A stretch of 32,000 nucleotides of DNA from an uncultured archaeon (GTDB taxonomy: Archaea > Asgardarchaeota > Lokiarchaeia > Sigyniarchaeales > Promethearchaeaceae): assembly GCA_964426185.1 (NCBI GenBank), contig CAYRPF010000028.1:3194-35193 (forward strand), in the 5' to 3' direction. Made by a program: the position numbers and the translations under genes. Below the pieces are notes generated by a model. It saw only the letters and a list, made by a program, of their open reading frames with translations, had not been told where the DNA came from and searched no databases. Below, in pieces: positions 1,018 to 27,503 of the stretch; the stretch's first letter is position 1, and every line of letters begins with the position of its first letter.

Positions 1018-1269
1018 TTAATTTCCACCTGCTTGAGTGGCCATTACAGTTATGATATCCGCTTTTGGATTCAAACCGATCTTAGAAAATTTAATATCAT
1101 CTGCTAAGACTTTTCCCTTAAAGATGAATTGAATTGCTAAAATTGGATTTAGCTTGTATTCTTTCTGCACAACTTTCTTAATCTCACCAACAGTCTTACT
1201 TTGGTCCACTTCTATCAATTTAATTGCTTGATCAGGTGGAACACCCGTTAATCTGAAGCGTAATTTCAT
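1018..1269 (-). CDS. Eukaryote-like ubiquitin-family protein with C-terminal GG plus one extra residue (GGN)
   Basis: 83 aa. KTVGEIKKVV matches ubiquitin DTIENVKAKI, QFIFKGKVL matches RLIFAGKQL, and the protein ends QAGGN. Confidence 0.85.
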   Translation of the reverse strand: MKLRFRLTGVPPDQAIKLIEVDQSKTVGEIKKVVQKEYKLNPILAIQFIFKGKVLADDIKFSKIGLNPKADIITVMATQAGGN

Positions 1270-12051: not shown

Positions 12052-12094
12052 TAATGGTTGAATAAATTATAAAAATAAAATTTAGGTGAGCAAC

Positions 12095-12448
12095 ATGACC
12101 GATGGTAAAAAAAATCAAACGAAAACCGAAGAAAATCCTAAAACTGATGAACACCGACTAAAATATCGAATTACACCAAAGTATGGTGTCTATACAGAAG
12201 ATGACAAAGTAATTTTACAAGTCGCAATCCCTGGTGTTAAAAAAGAAAACATTCAAATGAAGGCATTAAAAGATTATTTCACCTTGCGGGCTCAACGTGA
12301 TGAAGACACGGTTTACATGTTAGATTTGGACTTTGGGGTGAAGATCGAGCCAGAAAAAACTTCTTCGAGTTATGAAGAAGGACTATTACGCTTAGAATTT
12401 AAACGATTCAATCCCTTGGAGCACGCTTATACCGTTCCAATTCAATAA
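12095..12448 (+). CDS. Small heat shock protein (Hsp20/alpha-crystallin) 1
   Basis: IPGVKKENI, SYEEGLLRL and a C-terminal VPI motif; AGGTGA SD before ATG 12095. Confidence 0.88.
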   Translation: MTDGKKNQTKTEENPKTDEHRLKYRITPKYGVYTEDDKVILQVAIPGVKKENIQMKALKDYFTLRAQRDEDTVYMLDLDFGVKIEPEKTSSSYEEGLLRLEFKRFNPLEHAYTVPIQ

Positions 12449-12504
12449 TACATTTTTTTCTTTAACTAAAACGATAAATTTGAAAAAACAAAAAGGTGAT
12501 GAAT

Positions 12505-12864
12505 ATGGCACTCGTAGAAAATGAAAAATCCAAAGCAATGCAAGAATCAAAAACCAAAGAAGAACAAGATGAAGTCTATTATCGGGTTTTCCCCGACATG
12601 CGACGCCGAATCAACTACGAAGATAAGAAAATTTTCATCGAAGTTTCCCTCCCAGGAGTTAAAAAAGAAAACATTACTCTGAAAGTATTACCCACCTGGT
12701 TCCATTTAATTGGTCGACGCGGCCACATGGAATACAGTGCCAACCAAGCTTTTGGTGCTGAAGTGGTGCCTGAAAAAACTAAGGCAAAATATGACAACGG
12801 TTTGCTGGAAATAACCGCCTACATCCGTGATCCAATGGATGATGCTAAGGAAATTTCATTATAA
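12505..12864 (+). CDS. Small heat shock protein (Hsp20) 2
   Basis: LPGVKKENI and AKYDNGLLEI motifs; AGGTGA SD before ATG 12505. Confidence 0.9.
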   Translation: MALVENEKSKAMQESKTKEEQDEVYYRVFPDMRRRINYEDKKIFIEVSLPGVKKENITLKVLPTWFHLIGRRGHMEYSANQAFGAEVVPEKTKAKYDNGLLEITAYIRDPMDDAKEISL

Positions 12865-12956
12865 TTCAGAAAATATTCAATTTTTTAATTCTCTGTAAAT
12901 CTCTTTACAATAAATTATTAATATCAACCGTAAAAAAACCAAGAAGGTGATAGATT

Positions 12957-13328
12957 ATGTCAACAGTGGAAAAAGAAAAAGAAATGGTGGAAAAAAAGGA
13001 AGAAGTAGCTGAATCCAAAAAATCTGAGGAAGAAATCAAATATCGCATTCGTCCAACCCGATACTTGAATTATGATTGCATTGAAAACAAATGGGAAATG
13101 GAGTTTCATTTACCTGGTGTTCCAAAGGAGAATGTGAAATTTAAGATCTTAAACGATGCCTATTCTCTCGAAGCTAAGCGGGATCAAGCACTGTATCACT
13201 CTAGTGAGTATTTACCCTTTGAAATAGACACAGACAGCGTTAAAGCGGAGTACAACAATGGACTTCTATATGTGTCAGGAAAAATCAAAGATCCCATGGC
13301 TGATGCGGTAGAAATTAAATTGAACTAA
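12957..13328 (+). CDS. Small heat shock protein (Hsp20) 3
   Basis: LPGVPKENV, AEYNNGLLYV and a C-terminal IKL motif; AGGTGA SD. Confidence 0.9.
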   Translation: MSTVEKEKEMVEKKEEVAESKKSEEEIKYRIRPTRYLNYDCIENKWEMEFHLPGVPKENVKFKILNDAYSLEAKRDQALYHSSEYLPFEIDTDSVKAEYNNGLLYVSGKIKDPMADAVEIKLN

Positions 13329-13432: not shown

Positions 13433-14503
13433 ATGGGATCAGAAGATTCTAAATTACCTAAAATTCTTTTAATCGGAACCGGTGGGACCATTACTGCCCA
13501 AAAAATCGACCAAGCGTGGTCTCCCGGTAAATTCACCGAAGAAGATTTGCTCCAATTCATCCCGGAAATTCGCAAATTAGCCGAAATCGATACAACTAAC
13601 CTGTTCAACATAGATTCAGTCTGCATGCAGCCAAAGTATTGGGTAAAAATTGCCGAAACCATTCGAAAGGAGTATGATAATTATCAAGGTTTTGTGATCA
13701 CACACGGAACCGATACTTTACATTACACTGCTTCATCACTTTCCTTTTTGATGCAAAATTTGACTAAACCTGTTGTTTTAACCGGATCCATGGTGCCACC
13801 TCACGTTCTAGGGACTGATGCTTGGCGGAATTTAACTGATGCAATTAGGGTGGCGGTAGAAACGAAAATTCATGAGGTTTTGATCGTTTTCAATCGAAAA
13901 ATTCTCCGTGGCAATCGTACCAAGAAATTTCGGGAGGTGGAATTCGATGCCTATCAATCCATCGGGATGCAACCCATTGGAATAGTCGAACAAGACATTC
14001 GCTATTCGGGAGTCCCCTATTTTTCTCGAGATCAAAATGAAAAGCCAATATTTTACGATAAGATGGAATTGGAAGTCTGTATTCAAAAAATTACTCCTGG
14101 ATATAATCCCGAAATCATTGCTAAGTTGAGAGAAATTGGATATAAAGGTATAGTTACGGAAGGTTTTGGGTCGGGAAATATTCCAATTTATGAAAATTCG
14201 TTGATAAAAGAAATAGAGCAATCTACGCGGGCCAAAATACCTGTAATTGTATGTTCGCAATGTGCTATTGGATTTTCTTGGATGGATTTGTATGAATCGG
14301 GGAAAATGGCATTGATAGCGGGAGCAATTCCTGGATACGATATGATCGCTGAAACAGCTATGACTAAATTAATGTGGATTTTGGGTAACTTTCCTAATTT
14401 GACCATGGAAGAAATTCGTGCCAAGGTTTTGGAAGATGTTTCAGGTGAGATTTCATCAATAAAAACTCCTAAAGAAAAACGCGCTTGGGAATATGCATTT
14501 TAA
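13433..14503 (+). CDS. ansA: L-asparaginase, cytoplasmic type I
   Basis: IGTGGTIT, ITHGTDT, RGNRTKK, GFGSGN and CSQC motifs; lacks the GatD N-terminal domain. Confidence 0.92.
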   Translation: MGSEDSKLPKILLIGTGGTITAQKIDQAWSPGKFTEEDLLQFIPEIRKLAEIDTTNLFNIDSVCMQPKYWVKIAETIRKEYDNYQGFVITHGTDTLHYTASSLSFLMQNLTKPVVLTGSMVPPHVLGTDAWRNLTDAIRVAVETKIHEVLIVFNRKILRGNRTKKFREVEFDAYQSIGMQPIGIVEQDIRYSGVPYFSRDQNEKPIFYDKMELEVCIQKITPGYNPEIIAKLREIGYKGIVTEGFGSGNIPIYENSLIKEIEQSTRAKIPVIVCSQCAIGFSWMDLYESGKMALIAGAIPGYDMIAETAMTKLMWILGNFPNLTMEEIRAKVLEDVSGEISSIKTPKEKRAWEYAF

Positions 14504-14578: not shown

Positions 14579-16030
14579 TCAACGATAAGCATCAAAACGG
14601 GGATTTGGCTCTAATTTTTTCATCATTTCTTTCAATCCCGGCTCTACCCCTTGTAATAACATATACCCCTTGTTAGGTTCTCTATTGGTGATTTCTCCCC
14701 TCAAGTTGGTGGTCATAATCTTTCTTACTTCTTCATAATTGCGTGTTTGCCCAAGTGTCCAAATCATTTTGGCATAAGCTGCGGAAGGCAACATGTTTGC
14801 ACCCTCAATCACCCCACGCGCCAACATATCACGCCCTGTTTCATAAACTCGTAGATTTGTAAAACCAAAAAGGGGTTCAACCACAATTGCCACTGGTATT
14901 TCTTCTTCTTGGGCTCGCTCTAATGCCTTAAAAAGATATGAACTAACATGTCCAAGTCCTGTTCCAATTATAACCATTCCATGATACTGCTTATCAATCA
15001 CTGAGTGAATCAAATCTTCATCCATTCCAGGATAGAAATAAAGCATTGCCACTCGTTCATCGATTTTATCGTTCAACCATGTATCTTCAATATTTCCCCG
15101 CCGCTTTACATCATCCTTCAGCCAAGTGATATTCTGATTGGCATCAATATAACCTAAAGGCATATCACTTAAAGTTCTAAATGCATCACGACGACTAGAG
15201 TGCATTTTTCTAACCCGAGTGCCTCGATGAATGAGGTTGTAGGAGTCGCTGGTGTTTCCGTGCATGGATACAACTACTTCTGCCAAGTCTGCATGGCCAG
15301 CAATGGTACTTGCATCAATAATATTTAATGGGCCATCGCTGGAAGGACGATCGCTGCTTCGCTGTGAACCTACGCAAACGATGGGACGGGCAAGATCTTG
15401 AAACATGAAAGAAAGAGCAGAGGCAGTATATGCCATTGTATCAGTTCCATGACCGATAATCACACCATCTGCCCCATTTTCAAACTCTTTCATTATTTCC
15501 CTTGCAGTTTTAACCCAATATTCGGGTTTGAAATTTTCACTTAAAATTCCATAGATTTTTTTTGGTGTGAGGTTACAAATATTCATTAATTCGGGAACAG
15601 CAGAAAATAGTTCCTCGGGGGTAAATGCAGGTAATACGGCACCGGTACGGTAGTCTAAACGACTTGCCACCGTTCCACCCGTTCCTAAAAGCGTGACATT
15701 AGGTAGTCCCGGTTTAAACTGGACGTTGACTTTGGGTAATTTATATGTCCCTTTCCGATAACCCAATTCTTCAATGTGACAATCATCGGTGATTCTCACA
15801 CCCACATTATATCCCGTATCTACTTTAATTACCAAGTAATCTTCAGAAGTATGTTCACTTCGCGGTAAAATGACACCTTCATATTCAGCTTTACCTCGAG
15901 TAACTTTTACCACACTCCAAACACCTACTCCTTCTTTAAGTAAGCGTTCTCGGAGTTTTCCCCTATAGCCGGTTGGTTCTTTCTGTAATGATTTTGATGA
16001 ATCAGATGTTTTAGTATTCGGTTCGGTCAT
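14579..16030 (-). CDS. gatD: Glu-tRNA(Gln) amidotransferase subunit D, copy 1
   Basis: GatD N-terminal domain (EGVILPR...GYNVGV), GTGGTVASRLDY, HGTDT, GSQRSSDRPSSD and RKMHSSRRDAF. Confidence 0.95.
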   Translation of the reverse strand: MTEPNTKTSDSSKSLQKEPTGYRGKLRERLLKEGVGVWSVVKVTRGKAEYEGVILPRSEHTSEDYLVIKVDTGYNVGVRITDDCHIEELGYRKGTYKLPKVNVQFKPGLPNVTLLGTGGTVASRLDYRTGAVLPAFTPEELFSAVPELMNICNLTPKKIYGILSENFKPEYWVKTAREIMKEFENGADGVIIGHGTDTMAYTASALSFMFQDLARPIVCVGSQRSSDRPSSDGPLNIIDASTIAGHADLAEVVVSMHGNTSDSYNLIHRGTRVRKMHSSRRDAFRTLSDMPLGYIDANQNITWLKDDVKRRGNIEDTWLNDKIDERVAMLYFYPGMDEDLIHSVIDKQYHGMVIIGTGLGHVSSYLFKALERAQEEEIPVAIVVEPLFGFTNLRVYETGRDMLARGVIEGANMLPSAAYAKMIWTLGQTRNYEEVRKIMTTNLRGEITNREPNKGYMLLQGVEPGLKEMMKKLEPNPRFDAYR

Positions 16031-16033
16031 TTT

Positions 16034-18013
16034 TTATAACCCCCCTTGTAGCTTATTATTAACAAACTCTGCTACTTGATTTCCAGGAAGTGCATGATTA
16101 ATCTTTCTCATAATTATACCGATTAATTGATTCGATTTATAATTCAATATATCTTCTTTTGATAAATGCTTTAGAACTTCTTTTTTCTTCGATTTAGCTT
16201 CAAAATTTTTGTAAACTTCTAAAGCATATAGGTATTCTTGTTCCAACTGTTCCTCAGACAAATCTTTTGTGCCGAATGCTTCTAATAATTGATCTAAAGT
16301 TAGTTCTGGATGATTCAAGGTAGAAATGACTAAATTGGGCAATATTGACCAATCAAAGTTCTTATCTTGTGCGCCCTTTAATAACTCGATAATTTTCTCA
16401 TCAGAAAGCTTATCGATTTTTATACCATCCCGTTTTAAGCCCAATAAACTATCTTCTAAGAAGTAATATGCTCGTTTAATGGGAATTTTATGTTCATTAA
16501 CTAAGTTTTCAAAAAGAATAATATGATCATGTCGAATTAGCTGTGTCAATTGATCGAAAGTTATTCTTGATTTTCCACAATACATTTTTTCATATTCCCA
16601 CGGCCGTTTTCCTACTTTAACCACCAATTTTGAAATCGCTTCCATATCCATATCTAGGACAGGTGTATCAGTATCTGGATACAATCGCTCTTTTCCATGA
16701 ATTACTCGGAGAAATTCGGAATTTCCATTAGGCAAAGCACGGCGAGTTTCTTGAGGTACTCCATCAAAGGCTATTTTAATGCGTTCAATTACCTTTTTCA
16801 TGGCGTGAATTGCCCATTTTTGAGAACCTAAAGCCAAAACATAAGCATCTTCACCGGAACAACTCAAGGTTTTAGCGATTTCTTGACGACGATTTTGATC
16901 TATTAATGGTTTAAAGAAATTTCCTTGTGAATTAATGGGGGAATTAAACATATCTGAATGATAAAGATTCCAAATGGGAATACCACTGATAAGCGAAGCT
17001 TTCTCCAAAATATCTTGGCCAAAATCTTTTCCTGGCTGTTCTTCCTTTCCTAGTATTCCAGCTAATTTAGGTAGTCGAATTCCCATCACAATGGAATTTT
17101 CGGGAATATCTTGGAAATGATGGGTAATATCTATGTAAGTGTGCTCAAAATTATCCTTTTTTAAACCTCTTTGCTGAAGTTCTTGTGCAATTTCAATTAG
17201 GGTCTCTTGACGGCACACCTCATATCGGCAGAGCTTCTCAAAATTATCTAAATCTTGCACTCCTTTTAATTCAACTCGATCTCCTCCAGTAATACTGATA
17301 TTTACATCTTGGCGAACAGTTCCGATTCCTCTGCGCCCGATTCCGCTTAATCGTAAAACAAGACCAATAGTTTTAGCGGTTTTAATTAATTCTGCAGGAT
17401 TGGAAACATCTCGATGATCAGTAATTACTTCAACTAAAGGAATGCCTAGACGATCTAAGTTGTAATAAACTGTTCTGCCATTATTTTCCGTTTTAATTTT
17501 ACGTGCACTGTCTTCTTCCACTGTAAGATTGGTGATCTTTACTTTTTTGCCATCCACCTCTACCCAACCATCACGAGCAACAATAGTAGTCCGTTGAAAA
17601 CCGGTAGTGATGCTTCCATCAAGATACTGCTTTCGGGCAAAAATAATTTCATCCACCATAGCTTGACAGTTCAACCAATGAGCGAGTTCATATCCTCTCA
17701 TCAAAGCCTCTACATCCGGATGCATGGGCGGCTGTTCATCTTGTTCATAAATACAATCGCATTTTTCAAAAGCATGATAGATCACCCGATACCCTTTCTC
17801 ATATTCAATGAGCATCCCAGGATCGAAGTCACCCATTTCACCCAACACTGGTCGAAAGTATCGTTCAAAGCGATAATCTGGTTTTGTTGAATTTGGGATC
17901 ATAATTGGGGGGCAATGGCAGAAAAGTTTGCGTTTTGAGTTAATTTGATGATGGATTTCTAAACCAGCATGAAACCCAATTTTTTGAAAATCAATATTAT
18001 TTGGATCTAGCAT
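16034..18013 (-). CDS. gatE: Glu-tRNA(Gln) amidotransferase subunit E, copy 1 (more diverged)
   Basis: GLEIHHQI, KLFCHCP, DGSITTGFQRT, EEDSAR, LDRLGIPLVE, RQDVNISI, ELKGVQ, VPQETR and RLYPDTD. Confidence 0.93.
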   Translation of the reverse strand: MLDPNNIDFQKIGFHAGLEIHHQINSKRKLFCHCPPIMIPNSTKPDYRFERYFRPVLGEMGDFDPGMLIEYEKGYRVIYHAFEKCDCIYEQDEQPPMHPDVEALMRGYELAHWLNCQAMVDEIIFARKQYLDGSITTGFQRTTIVARDGWVEVDGKKVKITNLTVEEDSARKIKTENNGRTVYYNLDRLGIPLVEVITDHRDVSNPAELIKTAKTIGLVLRLSGIGRRGIGTVRQDVNISITGGDRVELKGVQDLDNFEKLCRYEVCRQETLIEIAQELQQRGLKKDNFEHTYIDITHHFQDIPENSIVMGIRLPKLAGILGKEEQPGKDFGQDILEKASLISGIPIWNLYHSDMFNSPINSQGNFFKPLIDQNRRQEIAKTLSCSGEDAYVLALGSQKWAIHAMKKVIERIKIAFDGVPQETRRALPNGNSEFLRVIHGKERLYPDTDTPVLDMDMEAISKLVVKVGKRPWEYEKMYCGKSRITFDQLTQLIRHDHIILFENLVNEHKIPIKRAYYFLEDSLLGLKRDGIKIDKLSDEKIIELLKGAQDKNFDWSILPNLVISTLNHPELTLDQLLEAFGTKDLSEEQLEQEYLYALEVYKNFEAKSKKKEVLKHLSKEDILNYKSNQLIGIIMRKINHALPGNQVAEFVNNKLQGGL

Positions 18014-18022
18014 TATTATTCA

Positions 18023-18085
18023 CAAAAACCACTAAACTGAATTATTTGAGTTAAGAACGGAACCTTTTTGAAGTCGTGGTTTTTG
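18023..18085. promoter_or_regulatory. 10-bp perfect inverted repeat in the gatE1 5' region
   Basis: CAAAAACCAC (18023-18032) and GTGGTTTTTG (18076-18085). Confidence 0.4.
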
Positions 18086-18112
18086 CAAGGAGCACGGGAA
18101 GAAAATGGGATG

Positions 18113-18523
18113 TTAACATAATTGAAATTCAGAAAATTTCGTGTTGATTAATACATCTATCTTCTTTTTAAGCAAGTCTACATCGAAATTTGAAACATTA
18201 AGGATACCTTTATTCTCTATATAAATCGTAGTGGCGATCTCCCTCAATCTTTTTAAATCACAATTATCCTTTAAATAGAAGACGAAATAGATGGCTTTTT
18301 TCTGAAAATATAAATTTTTGGCAATCACAACCATATAGGTTAGATCTACACCAGAACCGAATGAAATGGTGGCTATATCTTGATGAAAGAGTTTTTGTCC
18401 CAAACTTCCTATAGCCGAAACCATTCCGCTAAGAAGCACACCATTAATTTCGGGAAATCCTGCGAATGTGCGTGTAAAAAAAGGAAATCCTCGTGAATCA
18501 CAAATTTGTAGGCATAAAATCAT
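18113..18523 (-). CDS. Longin/roadblock-like small domain protein (Asgard eukaryotic-signature type)
   Basis: LQICDSRGFPFFTRTF, then LLSGMVSAIGSLGQKLF, then beta strands and a C-terminal helix; 136 aa. Confidence 0.65.
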   Translation of the reverse strand: MILCLQICDSRGFPFFTRTFAGFPEINGVLLSGMVSAIGSLGQKLFHQDIATISFGSGVDLTYMVVIAKNLYFQKKAIYFVFYLKDNCDLKRLREIATTIYIENKGILNVSNFDVDLLKKKIDVLINTKFSEFQLC

Positions 18524-18643
18524 AAAATCTCTAAGAGATTAAAGGAAACGCACCCAAATTAATTTAATCGATTTGGAAGCATTAAAAATGAAGCATTTAT
18601 TCGGAATATCAAATTATAAAAATTTTTGACACCTTTAGTTCAT

Positions 18644-20635
18644 ATGGGAAAATCGATAGACTATGCCGCAGTCGGGCTTAAATGTGGGATTGAAATCCAC
18701 CAACAATTGAATTCTGCCACTAAACTCTTTTGTGCTTGCCCAAATCAACTACAAGGCACCCGAGATCCAGATTTCAGAATTTTAAGAAAACAAAGACCAG
18801 TTTTAGGGGAAGAAGGGAAATTTGACGAAGGTATGCTGTCTGAATTTTTGAAAGGTGGTTCAGTCATTTACGAAGGATATTATGATTGCACCTGCACTTA
18901 CGAACTTGATGAAACTCCTCCGTTTGCATGCGATGAAGAATGCATTGATATTGCACTGGAGATTTGTGCGCTTTTTAAAATGGATATCGTCAGAGAAATG
19001 CATGTATGTCGAAAAAATTATGTAGATGGAAGTGTGCCGGCTGGGTTCCAGAGAACCATGGAAATCGGCCAAAATGGCAGATTAACCTTAAAAAACGGGG
19101 AAGAAATCGGAATTGAAAATATATTTTTAGAAGAAGATGCCGCCCGTCGAATAAAAACTGAAGGAAAAATCTCATATTTTCGAGTTGATCGATTAGGAAT
19201 TCCTTTGGTCGAAATAACTACTACTCCAGACATCCATGATCCAGAAGATGCACGAGAAACGGCCTATCGCATTGGTTTATTATTGCGTTCCACAAACAAA
19301 GTCAAAAATATAATTGGTTCCACTCGTCAAGATATAAATGTCTCGATTGCAGGAGGAAAACGTATAGAAATTAAGGGTGTCCAGAAATTAGATTGGATAC
19401 CGTTATTAATCCAGAATGAAGTTCTCCGACAGCAGAAACTGATTGAAATTAAGGACAAATTGAAGCAAAAATCATTCTCAGCCACAGATATCAAGAACAA
19501 ACCCGTGGATTTAACCAATGTTTTTCAAAAAACCAATTGCAAATTTGTTAAAGCAGGGATAAAACGAAAAGAAAAATTAATAGGTTTGAAAATTCCTGGT
19601 TTTAAAGGCATATTTGGAACGGAAGTCCTACCAAATCGTCGATTCGGAACAGAAGTTGCCGATAAAGTAAAAGTAATTACTGGTTTAAAGGGTCTTATTC
19701 ATTCAGACGAACCATTAATTGAGAAATATCAGTTTTCTGAAGAAGAAATAGAACAAGCTAATCAAAAATTGGAAATTAATGAGGGAGATCTATTTATCTT
19801 ATTACTCGCAAAAGGAAAAGCTTTAGAAACCGCCCTTAATGTGATTATTGAACGTTGTAAACAAGCATACATCGGTGTTCCTGAAGAGACTAGGCAAGCC
19901 CAAGAAGATGGTATTCATGTTTTTCTGAGGGAATTGGGAGGCGAAAAAAGGTTATATCCAGATACAGATACTCCTCCAATAATCCTTTCTGAAAATCGTA
20001 TCAATGCCTTTGAAGATAAGTTACCTCTTTATCCATGGGATGTCATTAAGATTTACTCTAAAAAATATCAGCTCGAAGAATTTCTCATTGAAGATTTAAT
20101 AATGACGGGTAAACTTCCGCTATTTGATGAGTTAATTACAAAGTATCCTGATAATCCCATGTTAATTGTCCGAGCCATAACCGATATGGTTAAAGTTTTA
20201 CATCGCGAAGAAAAAGATACTAATAATTTGCACCCCAATCATTATCATCAAATATTTAAGGGTTTAAAGGAGGAAATCATTGCAAAAGAAGCTATTCAGA
20301 AAATACTACGGGTCTGGTGTGATGAGCCTAATTTACCTTTAACTCGAGCGAAAGCTAAAGCGGGAGTTCAATCGGTAAATGAGTCAAAATTAGACGAAAT
20401 TATTACAGATCTCGTTAGGAAAAATCAAGATCTTATCAAATCACGAGGACGGGGAGCAGTGGGGCCATTAATGGGTGATTTAATGAAGATTGTGGGTAGA
20501 GGGTCGATAGATGGGAAAATTTTATCATCCAAATTAAGCCAAGCAATCAGTAAAATCCTCCCAAATTCTCAAACAACTCCAAAGAAGAAAAAGGAAAAAA
20601 AAAATACTACAAAATCAAAGAAGGTGAAAAACTAA
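18644..20635 (+). CDS. gatE: Glu-tRNA(Gln) amidotransferase subunit E, copy 2
   Basis: GIEIHQQL, KLFCACP, DGSVPAGFQRT, LEEDAAR, VDRLGIPLVE, RQDINVSI, EIKGVQ, VPEETR and a YqeY-like GPLMGDLM tail; ATG 18644. Confidence 0.95.
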   Translation: MGKSIDYAAVGLKCGIEIHQQLNSATKLFCACPNQLQGTRDPDFRILRKQRPVLGEEGKFDEGMLSEFLKGGSVIYEGYYDCTCTYELDETPPFACDEECIDIALEICALFKMDIVREMHVCRKNYVDGSVPAGFQRTMEIGQNGRLTLKNGEEIGIENIFLEEDAARRIKTEGKISYFRVDRLGIPLVEITTTPDIHDPEDARETAYRIGLLLRSTNKVKNIIGSTRQDINVSIAGGKRIEIKGVQKLDWIPLLIQNEVLRQQKLIEIKDKLKQKSFSATDIKNKPVDLTNVFQKTNCKFVKAGIKRKEKLIGLKIPGFKGIFGTEVLPNRRFGTEVADKVKVITGLKGLIHSDEPLIEKYQFSEEEIEQANQKLEINEGDLFILLLAKGKALETALNVIIERCKQAYIGVPEETRQAQEDGIHVFLRELGGEKRLYPDTDTPPIILSENRINAFEDKLPLYPWDVIKIYSKKYQLEEFLIEDLIMTGKLPLFDELITKYPDNPMLIVRAITDMVKVLHREEKDTNNLHPNHYHQIFKGLKEEIIAKEAIQKILRVWCDEPNLPLTRAKAKAGVQSVNESKLDEIITDLVRKNQDLIKSRGRGAVGPLMGDLMKIVGRGSIDGKILSSKLSQAISKILPNSQTTPKKKKEKKNTTKSKKVKN

Positions 20636-20636
20636 G

Positions 20637-22025
20637 ATGACTAGCCAAACTCAAGAATTTTACAGTGGTTATAAGCCTCAAACCATTAAAATTATGCAAA
20701 AATTTGATGTAAAGATTTGGGATCGAATTGAAATTACCACCTCCAAAGGAAAAGCCCAAGGTGTGGTTCTTCCCCGCAATAAATTTGCCCCCGATGGTTT
20801 TATTGAAATAAAACTCAAAAATGGATACAATATTGGTATTCCTGTGGATGAATCTTCTAATATCAAAGTATTGGGAACTGTGCCTCCGATGAAAGTATCA
20901 TTTGAACAAAAAACTCTTCCACACAACAAAAAACTTCCCACAGTAAAATTAATTGGGACGGGAGGGACAATCGCTTCCCGCTTGGATTATACTACAGGTG
21001 CGGTAATTCCCGCATTTGAACCAGGAGAATTATTTACTGCAGTGCCAGAATTAGCTGAGATCAGTAATATAGAGACTGAGGTGGTATTTCAACTTCTTTC
21101 GGAGAATTTATCCCCCCAGAACTGGCTTGAATTGGCAAAAAAAATTGTTTCTATAGCGAAATCGGAAATTGATGGAATCATAATTGCTCATGGAACCGAT
21201 ACTTTAAGTTTCACGGCCGCAGCTTTATCCTTTTTGTTAAAAAATGTTTCTATTCCAATTGTACTGGTTGGATCCCAGCGCTCAAGCGATCGACCTTCTT
21301 CAGATGCTGCCTTAAACTTGATTAATGCCGTAAAAGTTGCTAGTGAAGCCAATTTAGGAGAAGTCGTTGTCTGTATGTTGGGTTCATCAGCGCATGATTA
21401 CGGTTTTATTCACCGGGGTACCAGAGTTCGTAAGATGCATTCATCCGCGCGCCACACTTTTCGATCGATTGGAGCATCTCCTCTGGGGATGGTACGAAAT
21501 CAGATAATTACCTATTTTAGTCCTGATTATAATCCCAGAAATAAGAATAATCTCAGTAAAATGGATTTTTGGCCGAAAATTGAAGATAAAGTGGCTTTAA
21601 TTTATTCACATCCTGGTATGCAAAGCGATGTTTTAGATTTTTATATCAATAACGGATATAAGGGCATTGTTTTTGCTGGTTCAGGATTAGGACATTTACC
21701 AAAAACGATGTTTCCTGCTTTGAAGCGGGCGCAGCAAGCTGAAATTCCCGTTCTAATGACTGTCCAAACTATTTGGGGTTATACTGGAATGGATGTGTAT
21801 GAAAGTGGTCGAGAATTACTGGAATTGGGGGTAATTCCCGGAAAAAATATGTTACCTGAGGTGGCTTTTGCTAAAATGTGCTGGGCTTTGGGAAATTTCG
21901 AAGGATACAATAAGGTTAAAGAAATCTTAACCACCAACATTGCGGGAGAAATCACTCTGGGAGAACCGATGAATGGATTTATGGTGCTACAAGGGGTAGA
22001 AGATAAGATACTACCCTTAAAATAA
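20637..22025 (+). CDS. gatD: Glu-tRNA(Gln) amidotransferase subunit D, copy 2
   Basis: GTGGTIASRLDY, HGTDT, GSQRSSDRPSSD and RKMHSS motifs; starts 1 nt after the gatE2 stop, with an AAGGTGA SD inside gatE2. Confidence 0.95.
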   Translation: MTSQTQEFYSGYKPQTIKIMQKFDVKIWDRIEITTSKGKAQGVVLPRNKFAPDGFIEIKLKNGYNIGIPVDESSNIKVLGTVPPMKVSFEQKTLPHNKKLPTVKLIGTGGTIASRLDYTTGAVIPAFEPGELFTAVPELAEISNIETEVVFQLLSENLSPQNWLELAKKIVSIAKSEIDGIIIAHGTDTLSFTAAALSFLLKNVSIPIVLVGSQRSSDRPSSDAALNLINAVKVASEANLGEVVVCMLGSSAHDYGFIHRGTRVRKMHSSARHTFRSIGASPLGMVRNQIITYFSPDYNPRNKNNLSKMDFWPKIEDKVALIYSHPGMQSDVLDFYINNGYKGIVFAGSGLGHLPKTMFPALKRAQQAEIPVLMTVQTIWGYTGMDVYESGRELLELGVIPGKNMLPEVAFAKMCWALGNFEGYNKVKEILTTNIAGEITLGEPMNGFMVLQGVEDKILPLK

Positions 22026-26348: not shown

Positions 26349-26756
26349 TTAACCATCGGGATTTCGCTTGTTAAACAACGATTTCAATTCATCCATGATA
26401 CTGCCCCGAAGACTCACCGGATTAGCTGGAGCGGCATTTGCTTGTGGTTTCGGCGCTGGAGGTGGAGGTGCTCCAGGTTTTGACCCAGAAGGTGGTGGTG
26501 GGGCTCCAAGACCTGCTGCGCCACCGCCTTGTGCAATTTTTCGTTCTAATGTACCAATTTTAGATTCAATTGAACTTATTTTTTTAGATAATCCATTAAT
26601 TTGATTTGTAATTACTTGAATCTGAACATCTGTCATTTCTGGAATCTTTAAAACAATTTGCATAATCTTCTCTATCACATCCGCCAACCCTTCTACTCTT
26701 TCTTTTAAGGGTGCTTCAGAATTAGCATTCATCATCTTGAAAAATTCTTCTGCCAT
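26349..26756 (-). CDS. Coiled-coil, polyproline and C-terminal amphipathic (WH2-like) helix protein
   Basis: Heptad IQVITNQINGLSKKISSIESKIGTLERKI; APPPPSGSKPGAPPPPAPKP; SLRGSIMDELKSLFNKR. Confidence 0.75.
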   Translation of the reverse strand: MAEEFFKMMNANSEAPLKERVEGLADVIEKIMQIVLKIPEMTDVQIQVITNQINGLSKKISSIESKIGTLERKIAQGGGAAGLGAPPPPSGSKPGAPPPPAPKPQANAAPANPVSLRGSIMDELKSLFNKRNPDG

Positions 26757-26882: not shown

Positions 26883-27503
26883 TTAGAATTCGAGAAATCC
26901 AGGATCGCCTAAAATTTCTTCTATATTTGCTCGTTTTTTTGGCTTTTCTGAAGGAATATCTTGCTCTTCCCCAAATGGATTCATTTCTTGTTCATCGTAA
27001 ATATTTTCTTCTAATTCCGCATCAACGATCAAACCAGCTTTCAATTGTTCCAATAGGCGTTTCTCATTTTCTTTATATTGCTTGGCGGTTTCTTTCCACC
27101 GTTCTGCATTTTCTAAATCTTTCGGATCATTATATTTCTCAAATTCTTCCAAAGCCTTATCTGCATTAATTTGAGCATTATCTGATAGGAAAGAATATAC
27201 TAAAGCCAATTCGGAATATTGTTGCTTTTCCTTCAAGATTTCTTCGCGTCTGGTTAATCTTTCATATTCTTGATCTTTATAGTAGATATCAATAAAAGAA
27301 CCAAATGCATCAACGGGTTCACTGATTTCATTCTTAGGAACTACCTGCTGCTCACCGCAATGCCCGCATTCAATCAAAGCTTTGTCATCGCTATACTTCA
27401 TATTCGCTTTCATGGTTTTATGTCCACATTTCGGGCAAGTAAAAATTTTAGGAACGGCTCTTACTCTTCTATAAACTACTTTTTTTCGCTTTCTTCTTCC
27501 CAT
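26883..27503 (-). CDS. elf1: Transcription elongation factor Elf1 with a long C-terminal extension
   Basis: MGRRKRKK, FTCPKCGH, CGHCG and EPVDAFGSFID motifs, followed by about 130 additional aa. Confidence 0.88.
   Translation of the reverse strand: MGRRKRKKVVYRRVRAVPKIFTCPKCGHKTMKANMKYSDDKALIECGHCGEQQVVPKNEISEPVDAFGSFIDIYYKDQEYERLTRREEILKEKQQYSELALVYSFLSDNAQINADKALEEFEKYNDPKDLENAERWKETAKQYKENEKRLLEQLKAGLIVDAELEENIYDEQEMNPFGEEQDIPSEKPKKRANIEEILGDPGFLEF

Follow-up and report, generated by a model that had tools for sequence, protein, structure and literature searches.

The window analysed here, a 32,000-nucleotide stretch of an Asgard archaeal genome, carries on its minus strand (26,349-26,756) a single open reading frame, with an ATG start, for a 135-aa protein that is a stand-alone member of a pan-Asgard family built from a coiled-coil head, a flexible arm and a near-invariant end helix. 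The family is previously unannotated, and we found no description of it in the literature searched, which did not take in most subscription papers. The protein is very probably an oligomeric adaptor that presents docking helices, and we tentatively assign the docked partner to the actin family, so far as its sequence goes making it a candidate, and still unproven, actin regulator.

Asgard archaea are the closest prokaryotic relatives of eukaryotes. They crawl with actin-filled protrusions, and the actin regulators named in them so far are profilins and gelsolins only, which have been contrasted with the formins and Ena/VASP proteins of eukaryotes (PMC13716822). A protein of 135 residues that is abundant, nearly universal and equipped with a FAB-like helix would offer a direct route to asking whether a VASP-type filament binder predates eukaryotes. 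Should the helix dock on something other than actin, its invariance and the fusions to GTPases would still indicate an interaction, conserved from the Asgard ancestor, that has yet to be described. The protein may thus be an easily expressed, pan-Asgard candidate for the missing class of actin regulators, a prospect tempered by the negative co-IP result given below.

Architecture and distribution of the family

AlphaFold2, run with 41 sequences, predicted helices at residues 2-12, 17-77 and 116-131 and a disordered arm between residue 77 and the terminal helix. The short N-terminal helix (residues 2-12; 26,721-26,753, minus strand, as for all the features that follow) is kept in both the Loki and the diverse-Asgard alignments. 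The long helix, or coiled coil, of residues 17-77 (26,526-26,708) was modelled confidently, most residues from 21 onward having a pLDDT above 90, and has E19, E29, M32 and P39 conserved across Lokiarchaeales. It includes a clean Ile/Leu heptad repeat at residues 46-74 (26,535-26,621), in which all a positions are Ile (I46, I53, I60, I67 and I74) and the d positions are Ile or Leu (I49, L56, I63 and L70), while L17-I38 forms a second heptad phase, with a register shift near P39-Q45. The Ile-rich a and d positions, together with PDB profile matches that are mostly to trimeric coils and are generic, suggest that the coil is probably a trimer. The Gly/Pro/Ala arm (residues 77-114; 26,415-26,528) has a pLDDT below 50 over much of its length and holds two APPPP tracts, at residues 85-89 (26,490-26,504) and 96-100 (26,457-26,471); no other stop-to-stop frame of at least 80 aa in the 3.26-Mb genome has two separate PPPP tracts. 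The basic amphipathic end helix (residues 115-131; 26,364-26,414) follows, and the protein ends four residues after it. The reading frame, Ile heptads, Gly linker, two APPPP tracts and terminal helix of the initial annotation are thus all present where it described them, and the VASP-like layout of coil, polyproline and terminal helix that it proposed stands. Foldseek and VIA-align searches returned generic long helices only.

Orthologues were found in 37 of the 41 genomes of the order, including all 23 of the high-quality ones, and a broader profile matched in 270 of 301 Asgard genomes, a count that includes uncertain cases, as some of the weak matches in the Heimdall-type range are unrelated coiled coils. 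Scores were strong in Loki, Hel, Thor, Odin-type and several other families and weaker, with E of 1e-4 to 1e-13, in Heimdall-type and a few other families. Members with the full module were seen by eye in many of the weak-scoring families, and the profile of the Loki head aligned with that of the Heimdall head at a probability of 95%. The family is mostly single-copy per genome; two genomes of the same class but outside this order (L069 and L070) have two tandem paralogues, and one of them has a third copy. Among 1.84 billion representatives the full module occurred only in family-like proteins, the remaining matches being repetitive coils, and those full-module matches that bear names belong to Baldr, Njord or Promethearchaeota; the Atlas clusters of the family are 76-99% archaeal and carry no protein name. 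In these searches, which went through phylum genomes, Atlas clusters and representatives rather than individual non-Asgard archaeal genomes, the family was not found outside Asgard. Full-module relatives came only from Asgard-labelled or unlabelled records, in line with the initial annotation, which had named homologs common in archaea without actin as telling against its reading. Since the family and actin are both near-universal across the phylum, their co-occurrence cannot discriminate between partners.

Short, Pro-poor members lie on small metagenomic contigs with densely packed small ORFs (L257:676-1029 and L259:1279-1734), one of them adjoining a thymidylate synthase; these copies are possibly borne by viruses or mobile elements, and a search of the IMG/VR viral contigs gave no match.

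The source organism belongs to Lokiarchaeales and to the same genus as the genome matching Harpocratesius repetitus FW102. Lokiactin is encoded in its genome together with two actin paralogues (G000:C35:27724-28815 and C5:73220-74776), gelsolins and a weak match to profilin, in line with the earlier expectation of an Asgard host with actin and profilin. One of the gelsolins, the GelX at C21:14085-15134, has short basic L-K-K-I-P-like motifs, as does a long coiled-coil protein (G000:C27:5893-7419) that has a zinc ribbon at its C-terminus, and this zinc ribbon also occurs in a two-domain gelsolin (C127:1347-2387) and in several other proteins.

Directly upstream of the 135-aa ORF, at 26,883-27,503 of the minus strand, lies the gene for a 206-aa transcription elongation factor, Elf1, whose C-terminal extension is long, an adjacency kept in Harpocratesius, Promethearchaeum and Lokiarchaeum and not order-wide. 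The neighbours, Elf1 and hexapeptide membrane proteins, were rejected as functional context because they are conserved in part of the order only, and a scan for promoters and terminators gave chance-level results only. Elsewhere in the window, ORF translations revealed two adjacent gatD/gatE-like pairs (14,579-22,025, the pairs spanning 14,579-18,013 and 18,626-22,025), a third asparaginase-like gene (13,433-14,503) and three tandem small heat-shock-protein-like ORFs of 120-123 aa (12,086-13,328).

The end helix and its resemblance to the VASP FAB

The C-terminal helix, whose conservation in Asgard orthologs the initial annotation had proposed as a check, proved to be the most conserved part of the protein. 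Of the 16 columns that are invariant among 37 Loki proteins, 12 fall in residues 113-131, and E123 and L124 are invariant in 41 diverse Asgard members, among which the arm varies freely in length and sequence.

We built a helix profile from Asgard helices only and used as background 921,127 windows of the genome's own longer ORFs. On this profile the human VASP FAB motif (sequence from PMC10340426) scored 23.6 bits, and none of the 921,127 windows and none of 2000 shuffles scored as high. The FAB still reached 18.2 bits on a profile without Thor members, with 3 windows as high, and 12.2 bits on a Loki-only profile, with 2 windows as high; in a Thorarchaeota member, 12 of 20 residues are identical to the FAB. 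Compared on its own with the FAB, the 135-aa protein gave a BLOSUM62 score of 19, under the background maximum of 36, so that the pairwise match is not significant. PDB sequence searches with the helix profile, the Thor tail, the Heimdall tail and the Heimdall profile returned no VASP or WASP chain, and the C helices of WASP and N-WASP scored -1 to 7 bits on the helix profile. The FAB, a motif of 17 residues, was picked post hoc, after the resemblance had been seen. In a proteome with some 10^7 windows, chance alone could yield as many as a few tens of FAB-like matches, so basic amphipathic helices may have converged. At the level of sequence, the end helix resembles the VASP FAB in register.

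Longer versions of the protein, of 290-430 aa, occur in Heimdallarchaeaceae and a related family (L209:1495-2430:+ and L188-L216). They begin with the head and a Pro/Gly/Ala arm, continue with between one and three conserved helix-LxK repeats, in tandem where there are several, and a FAB/C-like helix that fits the family profile, and close with an acidic stretch followed by another terminal helix; this order recalls GAB-FAB or V-C-A. The repeats do not pass Pfam WH2 and are spaced differently from WH2, the repeat profile gives the VASP GAB only 1.5 bits, and WH2 was not among the Pfam families matched by 20 Heimdall long forms. Although they fail Pfam WH2, the long forms appear to be better WH2-like candidates than the window protein. 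A WH2 search of 83 Heimdall-class genomes found other genes only, none over the cut-off; among them, a protein of about 740 aa in nine genomes of one Heimdall-class family (L340-L349) shows a weak, recurrent, sub-cut-off Pfam WH2 match (E 0.005-0.06 per genome). A further variant, in MK-D1 (L355:691-2781:+), is a 697-aa protein with an internal Pro arm and the family helix and with no Pfam match, whose C-terminal hydrophobic segments resemble membrane anchors.

Candidate partners of the docking helix

In the mechanism that we favour, the N-terminal coiled coil, probably as a trimer, would bundle several flexible arms, and the short basic amphipathic helix at the end of each arm would dock on a partner conserved across Asgard. 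This helix would act like the VASP FAB, making weak, multivalent contacts with the sides or ends of filaments; the protein would thereby tether filaments or bundle them, in contrast to the nucleation expected of a WH2 protein. Where the module sits on Arf/Rag-like GTPase tails, docking would be coupled to GTPase signalling. An actin partner is favoured by the FAB match, the GAB-FAB or V-C-A order of the Heimdall forms, the precedent of arcadin-2, the near-universality of both family and actin, the GTPase fusions and the expression of the protein. It is weakened by the post hoc choice of the FAB, by the co-IP, by the loci examined, which have short flanks and in none of which a family gene accompanies one for actin, and by the gelsolins of this genome and GelX, Gel1 and Gel2 of L. 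ossiferum, which are without the module (best E 0.13). Secondary matches in ten genomes likewise included no fusion to gelsolin or profilin, though such fusions may occur in other lineages.

Both the expression and the co-IP evidence come from published data on L. ossiferum (bioRxiv 10.1101/2025.11.30.690169, Supplementary Table 2), comprising its proteome and a Lokiactin co-IP, which we read through an inferred locus mapping. The orthologue lies at 2,628,799-2,629,257 of CP104013, and gene counting from mass-matched anchors put it near locus 2210-2235. There, GNAMCCOK_02218 has a mass of 24.01 kDa against 24.03 calculated for the upstream Elf1, the same offset as for the other anchors, so the next gene, GNAMCCOK_02219, is inferred from its neighbour's mass to be the orthologue. 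This protein was detected in all 16 proteome columns, with a mean log-intensity of 18.47 against 21.69 for actin, and its abundance, judged by its place in the file, is roughly among the top 500. Such detection, together with retention in every high-quality related genome, establishes that the gene encoding the 135-aa protein is real.

In the co-IP, GNAMCCOK_02219 is not among the rows listed, which run from a log2 ratio of +10 to -1.06 with 841 rows lower, so it was either depleted or not detected, in an experiment that did enrich a profilin and five gelsolins (bioRxiv 10.1101/2025.11.30.690169). This is real evidence against stable binding of the orthologue to Lokiactin, and it goes against the actin binding that had been proposed, within the limits of an experiment that used stationary-phase cells, may have lost weak binders and may not have captured actin paralogues. 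The list is also noisy, with Elf1 itself at +1.36. The co-IP-enriched Arf GNAMCCOK_04696 is apparently without the module, and no match was found in the expected 5.32-5.53 Mb region.

A separate observation from these data concerns an 83-aa, ubiquitin-like-looking protein encoded in the window (1,018-1,269, minus strand), in which a single residue follows a terminal Gly-Gly. The orthologue in L. ossiferum (2,823,804-2,824,055; 9.25 kDa) is probably GNAMCCOK_02393, mapped by mass only; GNAMCCOK_02393 ranks within the 60 most abundant proteins and has a log2 ratio of +2.67 in the Lokiactin co-IP.

The main rival to an actin partner, which we consider rather unlikely, is a GTPase-linked tether or scaffold in membrane trafficking, whose head would co-assemble with the homologous Arf/Rag-like tails and whose helix would dock a non-actin partner, for instance a BAR or roadblock-type protein, a tether or a coat protein. 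The sole recurrent multidomain context that we found for the module is the C-terminus of Arf/RagA-like GTPases. Such fusions occur in this genome, as a 398-aa GTPase with a shortened coil, Pro arm and end helix (G000:C27:564-1757; L130:564-1757:-), and are common in Lokiarchaeia, sometimes with two or three per genome; the long coiled-coil head, too, occurs behind Arf/Rag-like GTPase domains. The co-IP rows listed also agree with this alternative, as do weak matches, of a generic kind, to BLOC1_2-type Pfam coils in 10 of 45 members. It leaves unexplained, however, both the specific FAB match and the helix-LxK repeats of the Heimdall forms, and L. ossiferum has the stand-alone protein with no GTPase fusion detected.

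The initial annotation had read the RGSIMDELK-type helix as a WH2 motif and the protein as a minimal nucleator or elongator, in which polyproline recruits profilin-actin and WH2 binds G-actin. Coiled coil, polyproline and terminal helix do stand in that order, PPPP occurs in 48 of 50 Lokiarchaeales members, and the profilins of Heimdall and Thor bind polyproline weakly (PMC8410842). The helix itself, however, lacks the features of a WH2: no LKKT/V-type motif follows it in the 135-aa protein or in any of 50 Lokiarchaeales members, the protein has no match to Pfam WH2 (PF02205), and WH2 is not among the most frequent Pfam families of 45 family members. On the helix profile, the WH2 motifs of N-WASP, WASP (sequence from PMC6624021) and the VASP GAB scored -4 to +10 bits, the GAB below 0, and are 4,000 times less rare than the FAB or worse. 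By sequence, these results set the helix apart from WH2 and place it closer to the VASP FAB. As to the arm, the two P4 tracts are present, yet PPPP was found in 1 of 12 Thor-type and 8 of 36 other members, so that polyproline is a Loki elaboration outside the family core, and the profilins of Loki and Odin were reported not to bind it (PMC8410842). With the orthologue not enriched among the co-IP rows listed either, we regard the WH2 model as improbable.

We give similarly little credence to the view that the end helix binds anionic membrane, the protein being a membrane-tethering or curvature-sensing oligomer. The amphipathic helix with its basic tail and the fusion to Arf-like GTPases would suit such a role, but the invariant E123 and the side chains fixed across the phylum suit a protein surface better than lipid, and some family members add acidic tails. 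Least probable is the ESCRT adaptor that the initial annotation offered as its alternative, with a MIM1 or MIM2 binding the MIT domain of Vps4: ESCRT-III tails likewise end in an amphipathic helix after a Pro-rich linker, but the MIM1 pattern occurs in 0 and MIM2 in 1 of 98 members, Glu123 occupies the position where MIM1 needs Arg, and no recognisable ESCRT genes adjoin the gene among the loci listed, the lack of the two patterns being what removes it.

Comparison with known systems

By the tests run, the protein falls outside WH2 proteins, Ena/VASP, the WASP family and MIM adaptors, and it has parts in common with several of them. The nucleation-promoting factors WASP, WAVE and WASH (PRD-V-C-A) likewise have an N-terminal helical coil, a PRD, an amphipathic helix and sometimes an acidic tail, whereas the 135-aa protein has no V and no Trp-containing acidic tail that binds Arp2/3. 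Among the small coiled-coil subunits BRK1 and CCDC53, one Heimdall member exceeds the Pfam CCDC53 cut-off (25.5 against 24.6 bits) and most Heimdall heads do not; CCDC53 matches occur in 3 of 20 Heimdall members and weak ones in 11 of 45 family members, and the Loki profile matches BRICK1 weakly (E 0.13). In a reverse CCDC53 search of 301 genomes none was over the cut-off, and the best match, below it, was a family member. It is conceivable, if quite unlikely, that this family is the archaeal starting material of the eukaryotic actin-assembly factors. On this view the common Asgard ancestor would already have had a proline arm between an oligomeric head of BRK1/CCDC53 type and a helix of FAB/C type; certain Heimdallarchaeia would have lengthened the tail until it resembled GAB-FAB or V-C-A, and fusion would have connected the module to small GTPases.

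The tails of the Asgard Arf/RagA-like GTPases, proteins of about 400-460 aa, share the homologous head, coil, Pro arm and end helix; they carry a GTPase domain, whereas the 135-aa protein is free-standing without one. We found no description of these tails in the literature searched. In layout only, the protein also resembles arcadin-2 of Pyrobaculum calidifontis (PDB 5LY3), another archaeal core with an unstructured linker and a conserved C-terminal helix, the latter binding the hydrophobic groove of crenactin (PMC5173319); arcadin-2 is encoded beside its actin, and the 135-aa protein is not.

The EVH2 region of human VASP comprises a GAB (223-239), a FAB (259-278) and a tetramerisation coil (343-380) (PMC10340426). 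Like Ena/VASP EVH2, the 135-aa protein has an oligomerising coil, a proline-rich arm and a basic helix that matches the FAB pattern in register. Unlike Ena/VASP, it has no EVH1, its N-terminus being all helix with no EVH1 Pfam match, and no GAB/WH2; its coil is N-terminal instead of C-terminal and is probably not a right-handed tetramer. The sequence match is confined to the 17-residue motif; the protein is a candidate for actin binding and may work like the EVH2 tail of VASP.
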